Shown: piece after piece, positions 8,828 to 57,291 of the stretch
Layout of the letters: each line of letters starts with the position of its first letter
How positions within the stretch are numbered: the stretch's first letter is position 1
Assembly (NCBI GenBank): GCA_964594735.1
Contig: CAZQMS010000001.1
Location: forward strand, 62,523-126,522
Origin: an uncultured Candidatus Saccharibacteria bacterium
GTDB lineage: Bacteria; Patescibacteriota; Minisyncoccia; Phycocordibacterales; UBA2100
Direction of reading: 5' to 3'
Length of the DNA stretch: 64,000 bases
Made by a program: the position numbers and the translations under genes
The notes under the pieces: generated by a model
Databases searched by the model: none
Seen by the model: the letters and a program-made list of their open reading frames with translations, nothing else
Told to the model about the DNA's origin: nothing

Positions 8828-9748
8828 CTATAGGAGCGCGGCTTCTTCCTGCAGCTCAATACCGAACTGGTTGAATACTTCCATCTTAATTTGCTGCGCG
8901 AGGTTGCGGACATCGTGCGCAGTCGCAGTGCCTTCGTTGACGATATAGTTGGGGTGTTGCAAGCTCGCTATCGCGCCGCCCACGCGCGCGCCCTTCATTC
9001 CCGCTTTTTCGATAAGCCACCCGGCAGGTACCCTGCCCTCTCGAGACTTCACACCCTTTTCTGCTTCAAACAGTGCAACTATTTCATCTGGCGCTACCGG
9101 GTTCATAAAAAATGAGCCTGCAGCCTGCACGTTCTGCAAGTGGCGGCGCTCGCGCTCCGCAATTGTCTCTGCTATTGACGCCGCAATCTTTTCAGGTTGT
9201 CCTTGTGCAAGTCTGACTTGCACACGAGTGATAATCCATTCACGATTGTCTTTGAAAAAGCTGTGTCTGTATGAAAAGTCGCACTCGGTATTCACAAACT
9301 CTTTCGTTTCACCGGTCTTGCTGTGTATTGCGCGCACGGCGACTACGAAATCTTTTATCTCCGGTCCAAATGCCCCCGCATTCCCTCTCGCTGCACCACC
9401 AACAGAGCCGGGAATACCTGCAAGCTTCTCCCAGCCGCCGTACCCCAATCGTCCCATCGCCTGTATGAGCGCAAGAAGATTGGTACCCGCCCACGCATCC
9501 ACAATGCCGTCGGTGCATTCGTAGACGTCGCCCGACATGCGCATCACGAGGGCGTCGAGTCCCCCGTCGGGCACAAGCACATTGCTACCACCAGAGAGGA
9601 CTACGAGCCGCACTTCGCGCTCCTTCGCCCACGCAATTGCTTCATGCACCTCTGACTCGCTTCGGACGTCCACGAAGTACTGCGCCTCGCCACCAATCTT
9701 GAACGTGGTTGTCGGAGCGAGCGGTAGATTTTCTTGTACATCTTGCAT
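8828..9748 (-). CDS. murB: UDP-N-acetylenolpyruvoylglucosamine reductase (MurB)
   Basis: 306 aa; FAD-binding PCMH N-terminus (TTFKIGGEAQYFVDV.S..EV.EA, LVLSGGSNVLV) plus MurB C-domain. Start lies 2 nt after the uvrB stop. Confidence 0.9.
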   Translation of the reverse strand: MQDVQENLPLAPTTTFKIGGEAQYFVDVRSESEVHEAIAWAKEREVRLVVLSGGSNVLVPDGGLDALVMRMSGDVYECTDGIVDAWAGTNLLALIQAMGRLGYGGWEKLAGIPGSVGGAARGNAGAFGPEIKDFVVAVRAIHSKTGETKEFVNTECDFSYRHSFFKDNREWIITRVQVRLAQGQPEKIAASIAETIAERERRHLQNVQAAGSFFMNPVAPDEIVALFEAEKGVKSREGRVPAGWLIEKAGMKGARVGGAIASLQHPNYIVNEGTATAHDVRNLAQQIKMEVFNQFGIELQEEAALL

Positions 9749-9750
9749 AC

Positions 9751-11796
9751 TTATTGCGCCTGCGCTGCTTTTGCCGACTTGCGTGCTTTAGACTTAAGCA
9801 GCTTCTCGAGCTCTTGAATCTCGTCGCGTATGAGCGCTGCCGTCTCGAAGTCAAGATTGTCCGCTGCCTCATGCATCTGCTGCCGCTTGTCCCGCATGAG
9901 CTTCACCGGGTCGACGCTTTCTGCCGACATGTCGAGCTGTGCAAGCTCGCGCACTGTCGCCTGCCTTGATTTCTGAATATCGCCCATGATATCGAAAATC
10001 TTTTTCTTGATGGTCTGCGGAGTGATGCCATGCTTCTCGTTGTACGCCACCTGCACCGCGCGGCGGCGATTGGTTTCGCTTATGGCGCGCTCCATAGAGC
10101 CCGTGATGCTATCTGCGTAGAGGATGACGCGTCCGTGTACATTGCGCGCAGCTCGTCCGATAGTCTGAATCAAAGACGTCTCACTGCGGAGGAATCCTTC
10201 TTTGTCCGCGTCGAGAATGCCCACAAGTTCGACTTCCGGCAAATCAAGTCCTTCGCGCAGGAGGTTGACGCCGACAAGTACGTCGAACACGCCCTTGCGG
10301 AAATCCGTGAGAATCTCAATGCGGTCAATCGTTTTCACATCCGAGTGAATGTACCGCACTTTTATCTTCTTCTCTTCAAGAAATGTTGCGAGGTCCTCGG
10401 CCATCTTCTTGGTGAGTACCGTGACCATCGAGCGTACGCCACGCTTTGTAATGGCTTCTGCCTCTTGGATGAAATCGCGCACCTGCCCCTCGTATCCCTC
10501 ACTCGATATAATTGGCCGGATAACTATCTCCGGGTCGATAAGGCCTGTCGGGCGAATCACCTGCTCAATGGGCTTTCCCGAGCGCGCAGTCTCGTACGCA
10601 CCAGGAGTAGCCGAAGTGTAGATAACCTGGCCGATGCTTCGCTCGAATTCGTCGAATTTCAGTGGCCTGTTGTCGAGCGCGCTCGGCAGTCGGAAACCGT
10701 GCTCGATGAGCGTCTCTTTGCGCGCCTTGTCGCCCGCGTACATCGCGCCAATCTGCGGGATAGTGACGTGCGACTCGTCGACTACAGTGAGAAAATCGGG
10801 TGAGCCATCGGCCTTGTGCGGGAAGTACGAGAGCAACGAATACGATGGCTCTCCTGGCGAGCGCCTGTCAAAATGCCGCGAGTAGTTCTCGATCCCGTTG
10901 CAGTATCCAAACTCCTTAATCATCGCGAGGTCTTGGCGCGTACGGCGTTTCAGTCGCTCTGCCTCGAGAATCTTTCCACTTTCGTTTAGTACCTTAAGCC
11001 GCTCTTTGAGCTCGGTCTCGATATCGGCCACTGCTGCCTCTTTTACATCGTCGGGCGTGACATAGTGCTTGTGCGGAAAGAGGTACGCCGTCTCTACTTG
11101 GCGACGTATCTCGCGAGTGATGGGGTCCATTTCCTCAATTGTCCTGATAGTGCCGCCCGCAAGGTCGATGCGATACACGACGCGCTCCTGCGCGGGCATG
11201 ACTTCCACAAGGGAGCCAAGCGGTCGGAACGTGCCAGGAGAGAGGTCTCCTGCCGTTCTATCGAAGTACATCGAGATAAGCGTGCGCGTGAGCGATGCGC
11301 GCGTGTACGCCGCACCCGTATTGAGGTGGAGAATTGCCTTACCGTATTGCACGGGACTGCCGAGGCCGTATATGCACGAAACCGAGGCGACCACGATGAC
11401 GTCTTGGCGCGTGAGAAGTGCCTGAGTGGTCGCATGGCGAAGGCGCTCGATGTCCTCGTTTATCATTGCCTCCTTTTCGATATAGGTGTCCGATACGGCG
11501 ACGTACGCCTCTGGCTGATAGTAGTCGTAGTACGAGACGAAGTAGTGCACCGCAGCGTCAGGGAAGAACTCGCGGTACTCGCTCGCGAGCTGTGCTGCGA
11601 GCGTCTTGTTGTGGGCAATCACGAGCGTCGGCTTCTGAATCCGGTCTATCACATTGGCGACCGTGAATGTCTTGCCTGAGCCCGTGACACCGAGAAGCGT
11701 CTGGTCTCGCTTTCCCTCCCTGAGGCCTTGCACGAGTGCCTCTATAGCTTTGGGTTGGTCGCCTGCTGGAGTATATGTAGACTGGATTTTCAACAT
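9751..11796 (-). CDS. uvrB: Excinuclease ABC subunit B (UvrB)
   Basis: 681 aa; helicase motifs (GVTGSGKTF), beta-hairpin region (YFVSYYDYYQPEAY) and a C-terminal UVR domain (DFETAALIRDEIQEL). Confidence 0.97.
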   Translation of the reverse strand: MLKIQSTYTPAGDQPKAIEALVQGLREGKRDQTLLGVTGSGKTFTVANVIDRIQKPTLVIAHNKTLAAQLASEYREFFPDAAVHYFVSYYDYYQPEAYVAVSDTYIEKEAMINEDIERLRHATTQALLTRQDVIVVASVSCIYGLGSPVQYGKAILHLNTGAAYTRASLTRTLISMYFDRTAGDLSPGTFRPLGSLVEVMPAQERVVYRIDLAGGTIRTIEEMDPITREIRRQVETAYLFPHKHYVTPDDVKEAAVADIETELKERLKVLNESGKILEAERLKRRTRQDLAMIKEFGYCNGIENYSRHFDRRSPGEPSYSLLSYFPHKADGSPDFLTVVDESHVTIPQIGAMYAGDKARKETLIEHGFRLPSALDNRPLKFDEFERSIGQVIYTSATPGAYETARSGKPIEQVIRPTGLIDPEIVIRPIISSEGYEGQVRDFIQEAEAITKRGVRSMVTVLTKKMAEDLATFLEEKKIKVRYIHSDVKTIDRIEILTDFRKGVFDVLVGVNLLREGLDLPEVELVGILDADKEGFLRSETSLIQTIGRAARNVHGRVILYADSITGSMERAISETNRRRAVQVAYNEKHGITPQTIKKKIFDIMGDIQKSRQATVRELAQLDMSAESVDPVKLMRDKRQQMHEAADNLDFETAALIRDEIQELEKLLKSKARKSAKAAQAQ

Positions 11797-11811
11797 GAAC
11801 TACACACTCTA

Positions 11812-11850
11812 CCAAAAAGAAATCAGGCCGGCACCTCGCGGTGCCGGCCT
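11812..11850 (-). terminator. Strong rho-independent terminator on the minus strand, 15 nt upstream of the uvrB ATG
   Basis: Minus strand reads aggccggcacc-gcga-ggtgccggcct followed by GATTTCTTTTTGG; an 11-bp GC stem with a U-tract. Confidence 0.7.
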
Positions 11851-12296
11851 GTCTGTGCGCCATTTTGGCGCTTATCGCGCTCCTTGTCTTCCTCCACACG
11901 CTACGCGTCTCCGAAGAGGTACCTGAATTCGCGCGCGACGCGCTTCATCAGCTCTGCGTCCTGCGTCGAGTCTCCGGTATCCCGTACCTCTGCCCGGTAG
12001 CACACCATGCAGATAAACGAGTCGATAGAGCACGACGCCCGCCGCATCGCTTGGCCACAGCATCGTGGCACTTCCGAGCGAACGTATCCTTCGGTCCTTT
12101 GCTGCTCGTGCAACACCCTCTCCCCCATATGCAGAATCAGCGTACTCGGTGGAGCGATCAATCAAACGCGCGTTTGTACACGACCGCTGCGCGTGACTAT
12201 ACAGGTACATTTCTGTATGAATGATGAAGATCGGCATTTTGCGCTTATATGCGTCATGGGGTAATGTGGTCGCGGCATCACCACCGAGGAGGGTAC

Positions 12297-12590
12297 ATGT
12301 CTCCAGATACAAAGCGCTCTCGAAAGCATCCCGAACGCAAGGACGTCTTGCGACTTGTCCGTAAAAGCGGCAGAGACAAAGTCCGCAAGGCGCGTGAGGA
12401 GGCCGCTCGTCGACAGCACGAAAAGCAGGCTCCGGGGTTTGCAATCGCGGAGTCGCTTGTGGCAGGAATTCTTCGCGCTCGCAAGCTGGCCAACGGCCAT
12501 TCGATATCAAAAATTGCTGATGACCCAGAGAAGCTCGCGGAGTATATCCTCAAGACATCATTGCGAATACACGACGAGCTCGGTCTCTGA
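12297..12590 (+). CDS. Hypothetical small basic protein (97 aa; MSPDTKRSRKHPERKDVLRLVRK...)
   Basis: GGAGGG RBS 6 nt upstream of the ATG; followed by terminator 12613..12644. No family recognised. Confidence 0.5.
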   Translation: MSPDTKRSRKHPERKDVLRLVRKSGRDKVRKAREEAARRQHEKQAPGFAIAESLVAGILRARKLANGHSISKIADDPEKLAEYILKTSLRIHDELGL

Positions 12591-12612
12591 CGGGCATCCG
12601 CAGATTGCGCTA

Positions 12613-13866
<1,254 letters not shown>

Positions 13867-14041: not shown

Positions 14042-15280
14042 TTAGTCAAATCGTAGCACGGCGACGTGCCTTTTGCCTCGCTTTAGTATCGCGCCGGGCG
14101 TGAGCGTCGCCTCAGTAAGCTTAGTATCTGCAGTTACCTTGGCGCCGTTGAGCGAAATCGCACCGTCGTCGAGAAATTGACGCGCTTCACGCTTTGATGC
14201 AGCGAGCCTCGTGTTCACAAGTACGTCCACAAGCGACTCACCAGGGCTTACAGCCGTCGCGGCGGCGGATTCGACTATCATGCGCATCGTTTTGTCATCC
14301 AATTGCTTTGCATCGCCAAACAGAAGCTCGGTCACGCGCTGTGCACGTCCCGATTCCTCCTTGCCGTGTACGAGCGCCGTGACTTCCTCCGCGAGCTTGC
14401 GCTGAGCGAAGCGCGCACCCGGATTCTTGGCGTGGTCCATTACCACGTCGTCAATGGTGACTTTCGAAAGAAGTGTGAGCTTGAGCAGCAGCTCGCCGAC
14501 AGACTCGTCGTCGACATTGAGAAAAAATTGGTACATCTGGTAGGCAGAGGTCTTCTTTGCGTCGAGCCACACAGCCCCGCCCTCACTCTTACCGAATTTT
14601 TTGCCAGTCGCCTTGTTGACGATAAGCGGCCAGGTAAGAGCATACACGGTCTTCTCCTCTTTTCTGCGAATGAATTCCACACCGGCGAGTATGTTGCTCC
14701 ACTGATCTGAGCCGCCCACCTGCACATCGCATCCGTACTCAGCATTGAGGTGCAAGTAATCGTAGCCCTGGAGGAGTGAGTAGCTGAATTCTGTAAACGA
14801 TATCGGCGACTCCTTTTCGAGCCGGTCTCGCACGATGTCCTTCTTTATCATTGCATTGACCGTGAAGTACTTGCCGACGTCGCGAAGGAATTCGACGAGG
14901 TTGAGCTTGGAGAGCCACTTGGCATTGTTCTCCTCGACAAAATCTTTGTCGCCGAAGACTTTGCGTATTTGCGCCGCTACAGCTTTGGAATTTTTCGCCA
15001 CCGTCTCCTCGTCGAGCAAATTGCGTTCTTCGCTTTTTCCGCCCGGGTCTCCTATCATTCCCGTCCCGCCCCCGGTCAGGATGATGACCTTGTGACCGTT
15101 CTCAATAAAATGTCGGAGCACGAGAAGACCTACAAGATTTCCCACATGCAGCGAGTCTGCGGAGGGGTCGATACCGAGATAGACGGTGCGCTTCGCGCCA
15201 TCGGTGATCTCCTCGAGCGTTTCCGACGAGTGCTGGTGTACGTACCCCCGCTCGCGCAGCGTGTCCGAGAGCTTCTCCAT
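14042..15280 (-). CDS. tyrS: Tyrosyl-tRNA synthetase (with C-terminal S4 domain)
   Basis: 412 aa; class I HIGH-type motif (HVGNL) and KFGKS (KMSKS) motif; S4-like C-terminus. Confidence 0.95.
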   Translation of the reverse strand: MEKLSDTLRERGYVHQHSSETLEEITDGAKRTVYLGIDPSADSLHVGNLVGLLVLRHFIENGHKVIILTGGGTGMIGDPGGKSEERNLLDEETVAKNSKAVAAQIRKVFGDKDFVEENNAKWLSKLNLVEFLRDVGKYFTVNAMIKKDIVRDRLEKESPISFTEFSYSLLQGYDYLHLNAEYGCDVQVGGSDQWSNILAGVEFIRRKEEKTVYALTWPLIVNKATGKKFGKSEGGAVWLDAKKTSAYQMYQFFLNVDDESVGELLLKLTLLSKVTIDDVVMDHAKNPGARFAQRKLAEEVTALVHGKEESGRAQRVTELLFGDAKQLDDKTMRMIVESAAATAVSPGESLVDVLVNTRLAASKREARQFLDDGAISLNGAKVTADTKLTEATLTPGAILKRGKRHVAVLRFD

Positions 15281-15705: not shown

Positions 15706-15745
15706 ATACAAAAAATGGATGAGCCCGGCATCATGCCGGGCTCAT
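15706..15745 (-). terminator. Intrinsic terminator (25-nt perfect palindrome tgagcccggcat-c-atgccgggctca followed by TTTTTTG on the minus strand)
   Basis: Sits between the methyltransferase stop (15751) and the metallopeptidase start. Confidence 0.5.
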
Positions 15746-16590: not shown

Positions 16591-16629
16591 ATAAAAAGTT
16601 AACGGCCGGCTTCCCGAAAGAAGCCGGCC
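16591..16629 (-). terminator. Intrinsic terminator after the secreted-protein gene (ggccggcttc-ccgaaa-gaagccggcc + TTAACTTTTTAT on the minus strand)
   Basis: 10-bp GC stem plus U-tract, 22 nt downstream of the stop at 16652. Confidence 0.6.
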
Positions 16630-16651
16630 GATTTCGCGTCCGTGCTGGCAA

Positions 16652-17509: not shown

Positions 17510-18052
17510 TTATTGCCTTACAAGCTCCGCGAAGCGTTTCCGAACTTTCTCCACTTTGGGCTCAATAACGAGCTGGCAATATGGCGCACTTGCGTTGTTC
17601 TTGAAGTAGTCTTTGTGGTAGTCCTCGGCGGGATAGAAAGTATCAAGTGGCAGAATCTGTGTAACGACGCGCGTGCCATCGGTAAGCGAATCTTGAATAC
17701 CTTTGGACACACGCTCGGCCGTCGCCTTCTCTTCGTCAGTCGAGTACAGAATTACTGAGCGATACTGCTCCCCCACATCGGCACCTTGCCTGTTCGGCGT
17801 CGTCGGGTCATGCGAGCCGAAAAAAACTGTGAGCAGGTCCTCGTACGAAATTACCGCCGGGTCGTAGGTCACGCGTATCACCTCAGCGTGCCCTGTTGCT
17901 CCTGTACTAACTTGTTCATACGTTGGTGCGGCTTGTAGTGAGCTTGTCGAACCACCGGCATATCCCGGCTCTACCTTGCTCACGCCCTTCAACATCGCAA
18001 ACACCGCCTCCGTGCACCAGAAGCATCCACCACCGAAAACTGCCGTCTGCAT
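17510..18052 (-). CDS. msrA: Peptide methionine sulfoxide reductase MsrA
   Basis: 180 aa; GGGCFWC active site at the N-terminus. Confidence 0.95.
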   Translation of the reverse strand: MQTAVFGGGCFWCTEAVFAMLKGVSKVEPGYAGGSTSSLQAAPTYEQVSTGATGHAEVIRVTYDPAVISYEDLLTVFFGSHDPTTPNRQGADVGEQYRSVILYSTDEEKATAERVSKGIQDSLTDGTRVVTQILPLDTFYPAEDYHKDYFKNNASAPYCQLVIEPKVEKVRKRFAELVRQ

Positions 18053-18058
18053 CCAGTC

Positions 18059-18095
18059 ATTATACAGAAACGGCTCAACACGTGTTGAGCCGTTT
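18059..18095 (-). promoter_or_regulatory. msrA promoter/operator: TATAAT located 6 nt upstream of the ATG (leaderless-type), plus a 28-bp perfect palindrome aaacggctcaacacgtgttgagccgttt (18068-18095) over the -35 region
   Basis: Minus strand reads ...aaacggctcaacacgtgttgagccgttt-ctg-TATAAT-gactgg-ATG. The palindrome was checked base by base. Confidence 0.45.
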
Positions 18096-18239
18096 AGCCA
18101 TTCAATGGGACGGACTTCAGCGAGATTTAACCTTGCTGGATTTTACAACTTCGAGACCACGGGCTATAGAATATGGTTGCGATGGTAAACGGCTCACACC
18201 ATCAAGACCGCGCGGGCGCGCGACTTTGATGGGTAGAGC

Positions 18240-18272
18240 GAAGCCGCGGCGAGGTAAGCCTCGCCGCGGCTA
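18240..18272 (-). terminator. GC-rich hairpin (agccgcggcgagg-taag-cctcgccgcggct) immediately downstream of the 76-aa ORF; putative terminator lacking a clear U-tract
   Basis: 13-bp perfect stem, 6 nt after the stop at 18278. Confidence 0.4.
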
Positions 18273-18277
18273 CTTCT

Positions 18278-18508
18278 TTATCGATTGCGATTGTAATAGC
18301 ACGCACAGTTGTTCAGAAACTCCTCGCGAGGTAAGGAAAGGGGTTTAATGGATTTCCCCTCCGGCAACGCGCGCAGAAGATTCACCCAGCATCGTCTGTT
18401 GCCCGAATTGTTCAACTCGAGCCTAAACGCGTTGCGTAGTCGCATAATCTCCTGTCTCAACTGCCCAGGAGTCATGGACTTCAAATCATCGTCAATCTTT
18501 CGGGTCAT
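18278..18508 (-). CDS. Hypothetical protein (76 aa) downstream of lysS
   Basis: GGAGGTG RBS 4 nt before the ATG; followed by the hairpin at 18240-18272. No family recognised. Confidence 0.5.
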   Translation of the reverse strand: MTRKIDDDLKSMTPGQLRQEIMRLRNAFRLELNNSGNRRCWVNLLRALPEGKSIKPLSLPREEFLNNCACYYNRNR

Positions 18509-18532
18509 CGGACACCTCCGTTGAGACTATAC

Positions 18533-32357: not shown

Positions 32358-35300
32358 CTAGAACGGGTCAGGTCCACTGCCATCGTCCGATGCGACGCCG
32401 TAGCTCGCTGAGTATGAGCCGCCCGTGGTGCCAACCGGCACCTTCATTTCGACCGTGACCGCAATCTGCCTGCCCGCTGTACCACTGTCGAGATCGCTGT
32501 CGAGCTCAATGGCACCAGGGTACGTATCAGCACCTGCAATCGTGACAGCCTCAGTGTCATCCTCCGCTTCGCTCGATTGCGCTGTGTAGTAGCGGATGTT
32601 GTCGGCAGCATCTATGGTGTTGCCACCGCTGATGAAGTCTGCGAATTTCATCGCGAAGTCCGTTTCATCCGTCGGGACGGTGATGTAGAAGATCCAACTC
32701 CAGCCGTTCTCGAACGTATCGTCCGCTGTCGCGAATGTCTTGATTGCACTGATTCCGGTTACTTCGAGTATCGCCGTCGAATCATCGAACGTCGTCTCGA
32801 AAGTATTGTCACCAGAAGTCGTGGTATTGCCCGATGCATCCGTCGAGAGGACTCGGAAGTGGTACGTTGTCGAGCTATCGAGGCCGGTAATCGTTACCGA
32901 GTGGTTCAATACCCCGTCTGTAGCTACCGGAGTATCCGCGAGAACTGTGAGTGTGCCGTAGCCAGATGTTGGACCATATTCAACCTGTGAATCCGCACTC
33001 TCGTCTGTAACCCACTCAATCGTGACGCTCTCGTGATCAATCGACACAGCCTGAATGCCTTGGATAACAGGACCAGTACTATCATTGGAATCCGTTGTGA
33101 ATTCTACCTGGACTGCTTCCGAGGTGTTACCCGCCGCATCCTGACAGCGCACGAAGAAGTCGTACTCGGTGCCGTCACTGAGACCAGTAAGCTCGTACAG
33201 ATGGCCTGTATCCGGCGAGCCACCAGACAACTCCGTCGGCAGCGAGCCGAAGGCGGCATCGGTAGGACCCACGCGGCATACCGCGCTCTCGTTCACCGTT
33301 ATCTCAATATCCGCTTCAGTGTCTGTTACGTTGTTCGCGACGGCTGACACGACAGGCGCTGTCGAGTCGCTCGGTGTCTCGGTAATCGTCACTGAAGTAC
33401 TTTCGTCGCTGAGGTTACCTGAAATATCCATCGATCGCGCCGTGAACTCGTTGGCTCCATTCTGACTCAAGAGCGCGCTGATTGACCAATCAGTCTCTCC
33501 GGCACCAAGAATGTCAGTCCCTGCAGTGAGCCCGTTGTTGTAGAGCTTCACGAAGCGGACACTACCATCGTCTGCGAGCGTGCCGTAGACGTTGTAGACA
33601 TCAGCATCCAGAGAATCCGGCGCAATTCCGAGCGCGGGTACTGCTGGCGCCGTCAGGTCGAGACTCGCTGACTCGTTGTCACCGATATCAACACTGTTGC
33701 TCGCGACGCTTTCGTTTCCATTTGTGTCCTTCGACGTCGCTGTGAACGTGGATGTAGCGTTTTGTGTCAGTGGCACTACGACTGCCCAACTCGTCTGTCC
33801 TGTCGCGATAGTTACATCTCCGACAACATTAGCGCCGTTGAATACAGTAATTGTCCGAGGACCGTTGACCGGAGTATCTGCACCGGCGGTACCTGCAATG
33901 ACGTAGCTGTCGGCGTTGACCGTGGCCTCTACTGTTGTGATGACCGGTGCAGGTGGCGCGACCGTGTCGCTCAGGAGTGTCGTGAAGTTCACGCTCGCCT
34001 GCGAACTTTCGTTCGTTGCAGCGTCGCGGCAGCGGACATACATCGTGTATGCGGTGTTTTCTGTAAGGCCATCAACGTTGACGAGGTGCGTTGTGCTACC
34101 GCTGTCAAACGGATCCATATCGCCGTACGCCTCAGGTGTGTCGCTAATGCGGCAGACCGCGGGCTCGTTGGTTGTCACCGTAATGTCGGCTGAATCCGAG
34201 TCCACGTTGCTTGCGAGTATCGAGAGAATGAGCGGTGCGACAGTATCAATCTCTGTGGTGAAGCAGCGTACCTCAGTATCCTGCGTCGTTGTGTTGCCCG
34301 CCGCGTCGCGCACCGATCCCGAGAGAATCGTAAGGCAGTATGTCGTCCCGCCCGCGAGGCCTGCGTACGGCACCTCAAGGATGCGTGAGCTGTCGTTGCC
34401 GCCTTGCACTGCTATTGAGCCGGTCGTCTGGTAGTCAGTGCCGTCTGCCTGATCCTCCACGAAGACGCCATTCTGGTCGAGAAGCGTAATCATGTCTGAG
34501 CCCGCACCGTTGAACTGACGGAAGTGAGCAAAGAGAGTGCCGTCGCTGGTTGAGACTCCGGTCGAGAGGTGCGGCGGGTTGATGAATTCCAATACTGGTG
34601 CGCGTGTGTCCCAGATGAGGTTCATCGTGTCCGTGGCACTGTTCCCGGCTTCGTCTTCAGCGAAAAGCTGCAGCTCGTACACTCCATCCTGGTTTGTAGA
34701 GATGAGCGCCTGGATTGTCGCGGTTGTCGTGAACGAGACGGTGCCAGGACCGGTCACTTTAGACCACGTCACAAAGTCGAGTCCGCTACCGGCGTCGCTC
34801 GCCGAAGCAGTCGTCTGTGTGAAGGCTGCATTGATTTCATTGTCATCGCCGGCGCTCACTGAGGGATTAGTCCTGTCGTAGGTGATGTTGGTCCCCCCCG
34901 TAATCGCGGTGACTTGTGTACCGACGTTATGCGTCGGCGTAGCAACATCTTCAAAGTCGATGGCGAAAGCAATCTGCCCTTCAGGATCGTCGCCGTCCAT
35001 CACGAGGGTCGCCTGCCAGTTGTTGCTACCAAGGTCGCTGACTGTTGCCGATTCGCCCGCAATAGTGACCACAGGATCAACAGCGAGTTGTTCTGAGCCA
35101 GTGAACAGCAGTGTTACCGTGTTCCCCTCCTTGGCCCAGAGCGCGCCGTCCTTGGCATTGTTCGAAGAAATCGTGACCGATGTGAGTACCGGTGCGACAC
35201 CGTCAACAGCTTCGACAGTGACGGGCGTGACAGCAGTATTCGGAACGGCTGCGAGGTCATCGAGCTGGTCGACTTGTGTGTACGTCACGTCTGGAGTCGC

Positions 35301-57218: not shown

Positions 57219-57291
57219 TGCCCTAGCATACCAAAACGATGCGCGCGCCCCTCCCGGGGCGCGCGCTCGCAAGAGAGACGTTCACACAATC

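Follow-up and report, generated by a model that had tools for sequence, protein, structure and literature searches.

We analyzed the gap between uvrB and tgt in a 64,000-nucleotide stretch of DNA (the window) from an uncultured Candidatus Saccharibacteria bacterium (GenBank assembly GCA_964594735.1, contig CAZQMS010000001.1, positions 62,523 to 126,522 of the forward strand). A first-pass annotation of the same letters had seen a strong terminator on the minus strand just before uvrB and no annotated gene for it to end. The explanation we favor, and as a whole consider probable, is that the gap is a compact divergent pair of small genes and that the hairpin is the ordinary intrinsic (Rho-independent) terminator of one of them, a gene predicted to encode a 71-amino-acid (aa), cysteine-containing protein. 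The contents of the gap would then be the 3' untranslated region (UTR), the coding sequence and the 5' UTR of this gene, plus two back-to-back promoters. The core of the earlier inference, that something between about 12296 and 11851 is transcribed on the minus strand and ends at the hairpin, survives. So does one of the two candidates for what is transcribed, a small Cys-rich open reading frame (ORF), which by its substitution pattern is under purifying selection in three lineages; the other candidate, a noncoding RNA (ncRNA), does not hold up. On this reading, an apparently empty transcribed gap is a mis-annotated region that holds a real small gene and promoters for a divergent gene pair, and our result is mostly a correction.

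The small cysteine-containing protein gene

Comparison across three Saccharibacteria lineages shows that the minus strand at 11901..12116 encodes a conserved protein on which selection is purifying. This contradicts the earlier statement that no minus-strand gene lies within 450 nt upstream of the terminator. The public NCBI annotation already carries a call here (P0001), a 48-aa protein that begins at an internal Met and corresponds to 11901..12047. The base composition of the longer frame is that of a gene: GC content by codon position in the minus-strand frame 11901..12161 is 0.59/0.48/0.73, compared to 0.61/0.39/0.68 in uvrB and similar values in tgt, and this frame alone among the six shows a gene-like pattern. 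The 71-aa protein contains the peptides SIDSFICMVCYR and VAREFR.

We searched 5.8 billion clustered proteins with the ORF translation, which returned only P0001 and P0002. P0003 (E = 2e-13) came from an exhaustive HMMER search against 1.84 billion cluster representatives, whose remaining matches were repetitive zinc-ribbon or low-complexity proteins. No further relatives were found by profile search or in two metagenome-contig scans, and a genome-contig scan gave L003 only. P0002 is located on Logan contigs L001 and L002 and on L003 (a 150-kb contig of an uncultured Candidatus Saccharibacteria metagenome-assembled genome [MAG]), and P0003 on Logan contig L004. Both orthologs (61% identity for P0002 and 45% for P0003) are exactly 71 codons long and align with the window protein over 71 columns without a gap. 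In the three sequences, 24 of the 71 residues are invariant, including P17, C19, C20, G21, M24, R25, F34, C36, C39, and the C-terminal FGDA. Neither of the two small proteins of the gap, nor their orthologs, matched Pfam, NCBIfam, PHROGs, or PADLOC at threshold. As far as these searches reach, the small Cys protein is a real but very rare family, known from three lineages and outside any described family.

The substitutions speak for a protein. We compared the proportions of synonymous (pS) and nonsynonymous (pN) differences, using Nei-Gojobori (NG86) counts for the three pairs of loci in all three frames. In the ORF frame, pS/pN was 0.68/0.24 between the window and L003, 0.78/0.39 between the window and L004, and 0.78/0.45 between L003 and L004. 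In the two control frames, pS was at most about equal to pN. Codons 1–23, which lie 5' of the NCBI start, likewise have pS greater than pN, and the differences between lineages pile up at third codon positions (0.45–0.65 versus 0.28–0.42). The protein sequence evolves about five times faster than those of its neighbors, with a nonsynonymous divergence (dN) of 0.29 versus 0.06 for tgt.

Insertions and deletions (indels) help to place the start codon. The flanking UTRs carry indels, and those near the coding sequence whose length is not a multiple of three (2 nt in L003, and 11–13 nt) occur only 5' of the GTG. Because these indels lie just upstream, the coding region common to all three lineages would start at GTG (12116) or TTG (12113). 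An ATG at 12128 is common to the window and L004 and is out of frame in L003. The first-pass annotation had listed the ORF as lacking a Shine-Dalgarno (SD) motif, but GGGGGAGAGG at 12126..12117 directly precedes the start, and GGGGGA(GAGG) stands before the common start in all three loci.

The order of genes is also shared. In all three lineages, the 3' end of tgt and its hairpin are followed by a small ORF on the opposite strand, the Cys ORF, a hairpin terminator, the 12-mer TTTGGTAGAGTG, and uvrB, whose product in these loci starts MLKIQS.YTPAGDQP. The uvrB and tgt identities given in the first-pass annotation agree with Pfam.

The terminator hairpin and the start of uvrB

The strong minus-strand terminator described before uvrB is real, with a 12-bp stem followed by a T-run. 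In a consensus scan it was the strongest minus-strand terminator-like site within 9.5–14.2 kb, and a 109-nt segment that includes it has a folding energy of −43.5 kcal/mol (z = −3.7 versus dinucleotide shuffles). Its placement close to the uvrB ATG (11796) was also right, but the distance from the end of the T-run is 17 nt, not 15; from the stem it is 27 nt. The first-pass annotation had allowed that the hairpin could turn out to be a DNA-level repeat found elsewhere. Its sequence occurs once in the window, with 0 copies expected by chance, and once in each related locus, at the orthologous site; the hairpin is therefore no dispersed DNA repeat.

The stem begins 49 nt 3' of the stop codon of the Cys gene (TAG, 11903..11901), on the same strand. 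For comparison, we looked at the other minus-strand hairpins in the window with a stem of at least 11 pairs and a T-run. Those at 15745..15719 and 16630..16603 each lie 3' of a same-strand stop codon, and one at 57266..57241 is inside an ORF. Once the small gene is recognized, the hairpin at 11851 fits the first of these patterns, a gene stop followed by a hairpin and T-run.

L004 carries a hairpin at the equivalent position, GGAGGCGGACACC-ACA-GGTGCCCGCCTCC, with C-G to G-C exchanges that alter both arms and with the tail TTACTATTT. The terminator structure is thus kept despite sequence change in one independent lineage. A smaller hairpin in the 3' UTR of the window gene is also found in L003 and L004. 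The comparison with L003 is of another kind: the window and L003 are 100% identical from 11837 to about 10690, a tract that spans the 3' arm of the terminator and the 5' end of uvrB. Because of this tract, L004 is the sole independent witness, and the comparison between the window and L003 is uninformative on constraint at the terminator. That the 3' UTR and terminator hardly vary between these two loci had suggested selective constraint to us, an idea that we dropped in view of the identical tract of about 1.15 kb that reaches into uvrB.

The tract is part of a wider mosaic. Background identity between the window and L003 is about 85%, and the synonymous divergence (dS) is 1.1 in tgt, 0.85 in the 3' part of uvrB, and 0.05 in tyrS (14042..15280). 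In the identical tract of about 1.15 kb, where dS = 0, window positions 10690..11837 correspond to 10281..11430 of L003 and include the first 1.1 kb of uvrB. Both variants are present as Logan contigs (L002 and L005) in one sequencing run, SRR15237806, and each of these contigs ends exactly 30 nt beyond the last difference, as expected from a k=31 graph. The pattern points to recombination between co-occurring strains, or else to an assembly or binning chimera.

Immediately downstream of the terminator, the 12-mer TTTGGTAGAGTG is identical in the window, in L003, and in the divergent L004, where the surroundings differ. There is no SD motif before uvrB. Across the window, a TATAAT-like hexamer (at least 5 of 6 positions matching, 5–10 nt 5' of the start) precedes 7 of 32 gene starts, compared to 0.6% of random positions; these boxes include those at starts 13857, 18052, 19984, 21136, 23946, 44412, and 62818, all on the minus strand. 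SD-like tetramers precede 3 of the 32 starts, versus 10.6% at random. Such starts, with a −10 box and few SD motifs, match what Lomsadze et al. (2018; PMC6028130) described as “group C”, a leaderless pattern. By these counts, the genome in the window is a case of leaderless-type, group C start architecture in Saccharibacteria. Gene starts ruled by −10 boxes over SD motifs affect small-ORF calling in such MAGs of the candidate phyla radiation (CPR).

In our proposed explanation, the small gene would be transcribed from a −10 element, TATAGT, at 12201..12196, with a leader of about 70 nt, and translated from the GTG or TTG that follows GGGGGAGAGG. Its transcript would stop at 11851..11814. Transcription of uvrB would be separate, from an extended −10 element, TGgTAGAGT (11814..11806), whose first base is the final T of the terminator tail and which would give an mRNA leader of 0–5 nt. 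The terminator would insulate this promoter from upstream transcription. Its nearness to the start codon could thus be explained because it shields the uvrB promoter, and because that near-leaderless promoter begins where the T-run ends; the odd position would follow from the leaderless-type promoters of this Saccharibacteria genome. On the other side of the gap, the divergent 97-aa ORF would have its own back-to-back promoter and its own plus-strand terminator.

A junction as compact as that of uvrB is seen elsewhere in the window. Reading toward the ATG of a gene at 17510..18052, the minus strand at 18053..18092 has the hairpin GGCTCAACACGTGTTGAGCC, then TTTCTG, TATAAT, and 6 nt. A second apparent gap, 18053..18532, holds a minus-strand 76-aa ORF (18278..18508) with a GGAGGTG SD motif, as well as a hairpin at 18242..18271 with a 13-bp stem and a plus-strand T-run, with no obvious plus-strand ORF ahead of it. 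This second gap could hold another small gene or a small RNA.

The divergent gene, the intergenic region, and rival explanations

The plus-strand ORF that starts at 12297 would encode a basic, all-helical protein. A database search found no relatives other than an identical copy. L004 has a positional counterpart of 99 aa, which scores z = 5.7 versus 1,000 shuffles (Smith-Waterman and global scores) and is not significant by BLASTP; L003 keeps a 35-aa remnant and retains the promoter-like site. An AlphaFold2 (AF2) model of the 97-aa protein made without an alignment is helical and of low confidence (pTM 0.28), too poor for a fold search. The first-pass annotation had assigned a terminator at 12613-12644 to tgt. 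The hairpin concerned (12611..12636) instead has its T-run on the plus strand and follows the stop codon of the 97-aa ORF. On the tgt strand, the hairpin 12636..12611 is followed by GCGCAATC, which has no T-run, and in L004 the hairpin has the same orientation, with CTATTTTT on the strand of the divergent gene.

The candidate promoters between the two small genes have counterparts in the related loci. A promoter-like site of the form TTGCnn-17-TAnnnT is present 26–30 nt 5' of the divergent ATG in three of three loci (TTGCCT/TAGTCT in L004, TTGCCT/TAGGCT in L003). The candidate −10 of the small gene is matched by TATATT in L003 and TATAGT in L004, about 70–80 nt 5' of the Cys gene. Between them lies the best-conserved intergenic stretch of the three loci, a candidate −35 region or operator. 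The palindrome in the 5' UTR falls within the 11–13-nt insertion that is absent from L003 and L004, and is probably a lineage-specific insertion without function.

Features of the uvrB–tgt region and neighboring genes in the window (coordinates, strand, and remarks; promoter and terminator entries are predicted)
Feature	Coordinates	Strand	Remarks
murB	8828..9748	-	Pfam
uvrB, 681 aa	9751..11796	-	Pfam UvrB, UvrB_inter, Helicase_C, and UVR domains
Proposed uvrB extended −10, TGgTAGAGT	11806..11814	-	9 nt 5' of ATG
Terminator T-run, ATTTCTTTTT	11814..11823	-	Last T is the T of TG in the uvrB extended −10
Terminator stem-loop of Cys-protein gene, CAGGCCGGCACC-GCGA-GGTGCCGGCCTG	11824..11851	-	12 pairs, 10 of them G-C; loop of 4
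3' UTR of small gene	11852..11900	-	5-bp hairpin GCGCC-AAAAT-GGCGC (11871..11857) before terminator
Cys-containing protein gene	11901..12116	-	71 codons from GTG plus TAG stop; alternative starts TTG 12113, ATG 12128
SD-like motif, GGGGGAGAGG	12117..12126	-	Directly 5' of GTG/TTG start
Palindrome, caaacgcgcgtttg	12165..12178		In 5' UTR of small gene
Candidate small-gene −10, TATAGT	12196..12201	-	Leader of about 70 nt
Conserved block, ATCTTCAT-nn-TTCATACA	12214..12231	-	Between the divergent promoters; conserved in three loci
Candidate divergent-gene promoter, TTGCGC-17 nt-TAATGT	12239..12267	+	Counterparts in L004 and L003
Divergent ORF, 97 aa	12297..12590	+	SD GAGGAGGG at 12286..12293
Predicted terminator of 97-aa ORF	12611..12636	+	11-bp stem, tail ATTTTATAGA; hairpin shared with convergent tgt
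tgt, 405 aa	12640..13857	-	Pfam TGT, E = 4e-131
tyrS	14042..15280	-	Pfam

Several readings of the hairpin compete with a terminator that ends a small protein gene. If it ended a minus-strand ncRNA, with the Cys ORF a chance frame, then the well-formed hairpin and T-run, a 3' part whose extra hairpins fold better than shuffles, and a protein without a known family would all be at home. However, the substitution pattern largely refutes this, as pS greatly exceeds pN only in the ORF frame, the differences favor third positions, and 71 codons are free of indels while the UTRs are not. The searches for RNA agree: Rfam gave 0 matches across the whole window at the gathering threshold, and nothing above noise in 11700..12700 at E <= 10; ARAGORN found no tRNA or tmRNA; and shuffled sequences fold at least as well as the 5' UTR (z = +0.9). 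We give the ncRNA very little credence. Only slightly less improbable is that the terminator ends long tgt transcripts that run antisense through the 97-aa ORF and the gap. The hairpin after the tgt stop does lack a T-run on that strand (GCGCAATC), and no other minus-strand terminator comes before the one at 11851. Yet an 11-bp GC hairpin may still pause or terminate transcription in both directions, the small gene has a conserved −10-like box and intergenic block of its own, and a divergent promoter in all three lineages means that convergent transcription would collide. Such long transcripts would in any case be compatible with a divergent gene pair.

The rival that we take most seriously, though we still consider it unlikely, is a regulated attenuator, in which uvrB lacks its own promoter and is fed by read-through from the small-gene promoter, so that the small ORF or the 3' UTR hairpins set the uvrB supply. 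The distance of 27 nt from the stem to the uvrB ATG and the adjacent, same-strand genes in three lineages would suit this, as would two mutually exclusive small hairpins before the terminator in the window and L003 (GCGC-GATAA-GCGC and GCGCC-AAAAT-GGCGC). In L004 the T-run is interrupted (TTACTATTT), which makes some read-through plausible. But the stretch from hairpin to ATG contains the conserved TGgTAGAGT, at the usual −10 distance of this genome, and the same order of hairpin, T-run, −10, and start recurs at the gene 17510..18052. In addition, the alternative pairing is not conserved in L004, where there is a single small hairpin, and the upstream ORF is a conserved protein of 71 codons, no short leader peptide. 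SOS control of uvrB through a LexA or Cheo box in the gap has a probability close to nil in our view. In many bacteria, uvrB belongs to the classic SOS genes, and the CGAAC-containing string CGAACGTATCCTTCG (12080..12094) is present, as is the palindrome, both as the first-pass annotation had reported. Their proposed relevance to SOS control falls away, as neither is conserved. The supposed Cheo half-site falls within the small gene itself, among codons for the variable N-terminal region of its protein. It is separated from the uvrB start by about 280 nt and by the terminator, and is not conserved in L003 or L004; the palindrome is lineage specific. The suggested check for LexA boxes points the same way: GAAC-N4-GTTC occurs 2 times in the 64 kb versus 1.28 expected, once in tgt and once at 34003, with none near 11797..11860. 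Both divergent small genes, along with their promoters, have been retained between tgt and uvrB in the three lineages. It would be a long shot, too, that these two fast-evolving genes form a lineage-specific regulatory module (e.g., a DNA-damage or stress switch) that acts on the uvrB promoter or on terminator read-through; no LexA-type box is visible at uvrB or in the gap.

This leaves the divergent pair, with the hairpin as terminator of the small Cys-protein gene, as the probable explanation, and a number of points weigh against it. Its promoters, transcription starts, and termination are sequence-based predictions throughout. SD motifs are without enrichment in this genome, which makes the ribosome-binding-site argument weaker, and the start may be GTG 12116, TTG 12113, or ATG 12128. 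The small-gene promoter is without a recognizable −35. At uvrB, TAGAGT agrees with TATAAT at only 4 of 6 positions, and the L004 copy of the −10 box stands 16 nt before the ATG, for a leader of about 10 nt that is not strictly leaderless. Finally, there are three lineages in all, with L004 as the sole independent witness for both the terminator and the 5' end of uvrB.

The predicted protein and comparison with known systems

What the small protein might look like can be judged from an AF2 model built on the three-sequence alignment (mean pLDDT 70). Residues 1–13 are disordered, strands are predicted at 25–28, 33–35, and 42–44, and a helix at 50–68. Foldseek gave no match to the PDB with E < 0.7 (all E >= 0.79), and its top nonsignificant matches were zinc ribbons or small zinc-finger proteins: the Brf1 ribbon, ZifS (8yoz), eL43, Rpb9, NudC, and MqsA. 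The top profile matches were likewise all zinc ribbons, at E >= 0.01 for Pfam and NCBIfam, all below cutoff, and at E >= 0.59 in a PDB profile search. The second knuckle, F-x-C-x-x-C (C36-x-x-C39), is invariant.

Our guess, and a weak one, at the most likely structure is a short zinc-ribbon-like fold of three strands, built around the invariant Cys19/Cys20 and Cys36-x-x-Cys39 and continued by a C-terminal helix whose last residues are FGDA. Two findings speak against a zinc ribbon proper. The first knuckle is P-x-C-C-G (C19-C20) instead of CxxC and Cys29 is not conserved, so the two CxxC knuckles of a zinc ribbon are not both there; and no profile or structure model matched at threshold. Because the first knuckle is not CxxC and the matches are sub-threshold, we term the protein zinc-ribbon-like and do not place it in the zinc-ribbon group. 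It may bind metal and act as a small partner to a protein or nucleic acid, which is again a guess.

The search of cluster representatives also turned up P0004, a phage-like protein of 1062 aa that begins with a prohead serine protease domain and carries seven zinc-ribbon repeats in tandem (…CVSCG…FLCPRCYRE…). Between these repeats and the small protein's second knuckle there is a weak resemblance (46% probability by hhalign), which is probably generic zinc-ribbon similarity.

The proposed elements of this locus can each be set beside a known system. Its closest zinc-binding counterparts are small zinc-ribbon proteins, namely FmdB/CxxC_CxxC_SSSS (TIGR02605), Zn_ribbon_8/9, ZifS of Thermus thermophilus (PDB 8yoz), and eL43/L37a, which were the best matches, all of them sub-threshold. 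With these the protein shares a length of about 70 aa, a CxxC second knuckle after an aromatic residue, and, in the model, short β-strands. It differs in the P-x-C-C-G first knuckle, in an added C-terminal amphipathic helix ending in FGDA, in reaching no cutoff, and in being confined to three lineages.

The gene starts of uvrB, tgt, and at least seven others in the window resemble the group C leaderless genes described with GeneMarkS-2 in Actinobacteria and Deinococcus-Thermus (PMC6028130), which have a Pribnow-like box 6–10 nt from the start and no SD motif. Here, in contrast, the genome belongs to Saccharibacteria, within the CPR, and the box at uvrB reads TAGAGT instead of TATAAT, is preceded by TG, and in L004 stands 16 nt from the ATG. 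Lastly, the predicted terminator is like other intrinsic terminators that abut the next promoter, with the same GC-rich 12-bp stem, 4-nt loop, and T-run, 49 nt past the stop codon. What sets this one apart is that its T-run overlaps the TG of the next putative extended −10, so that terminator, promoter, and start codon would fit within 56 nt.

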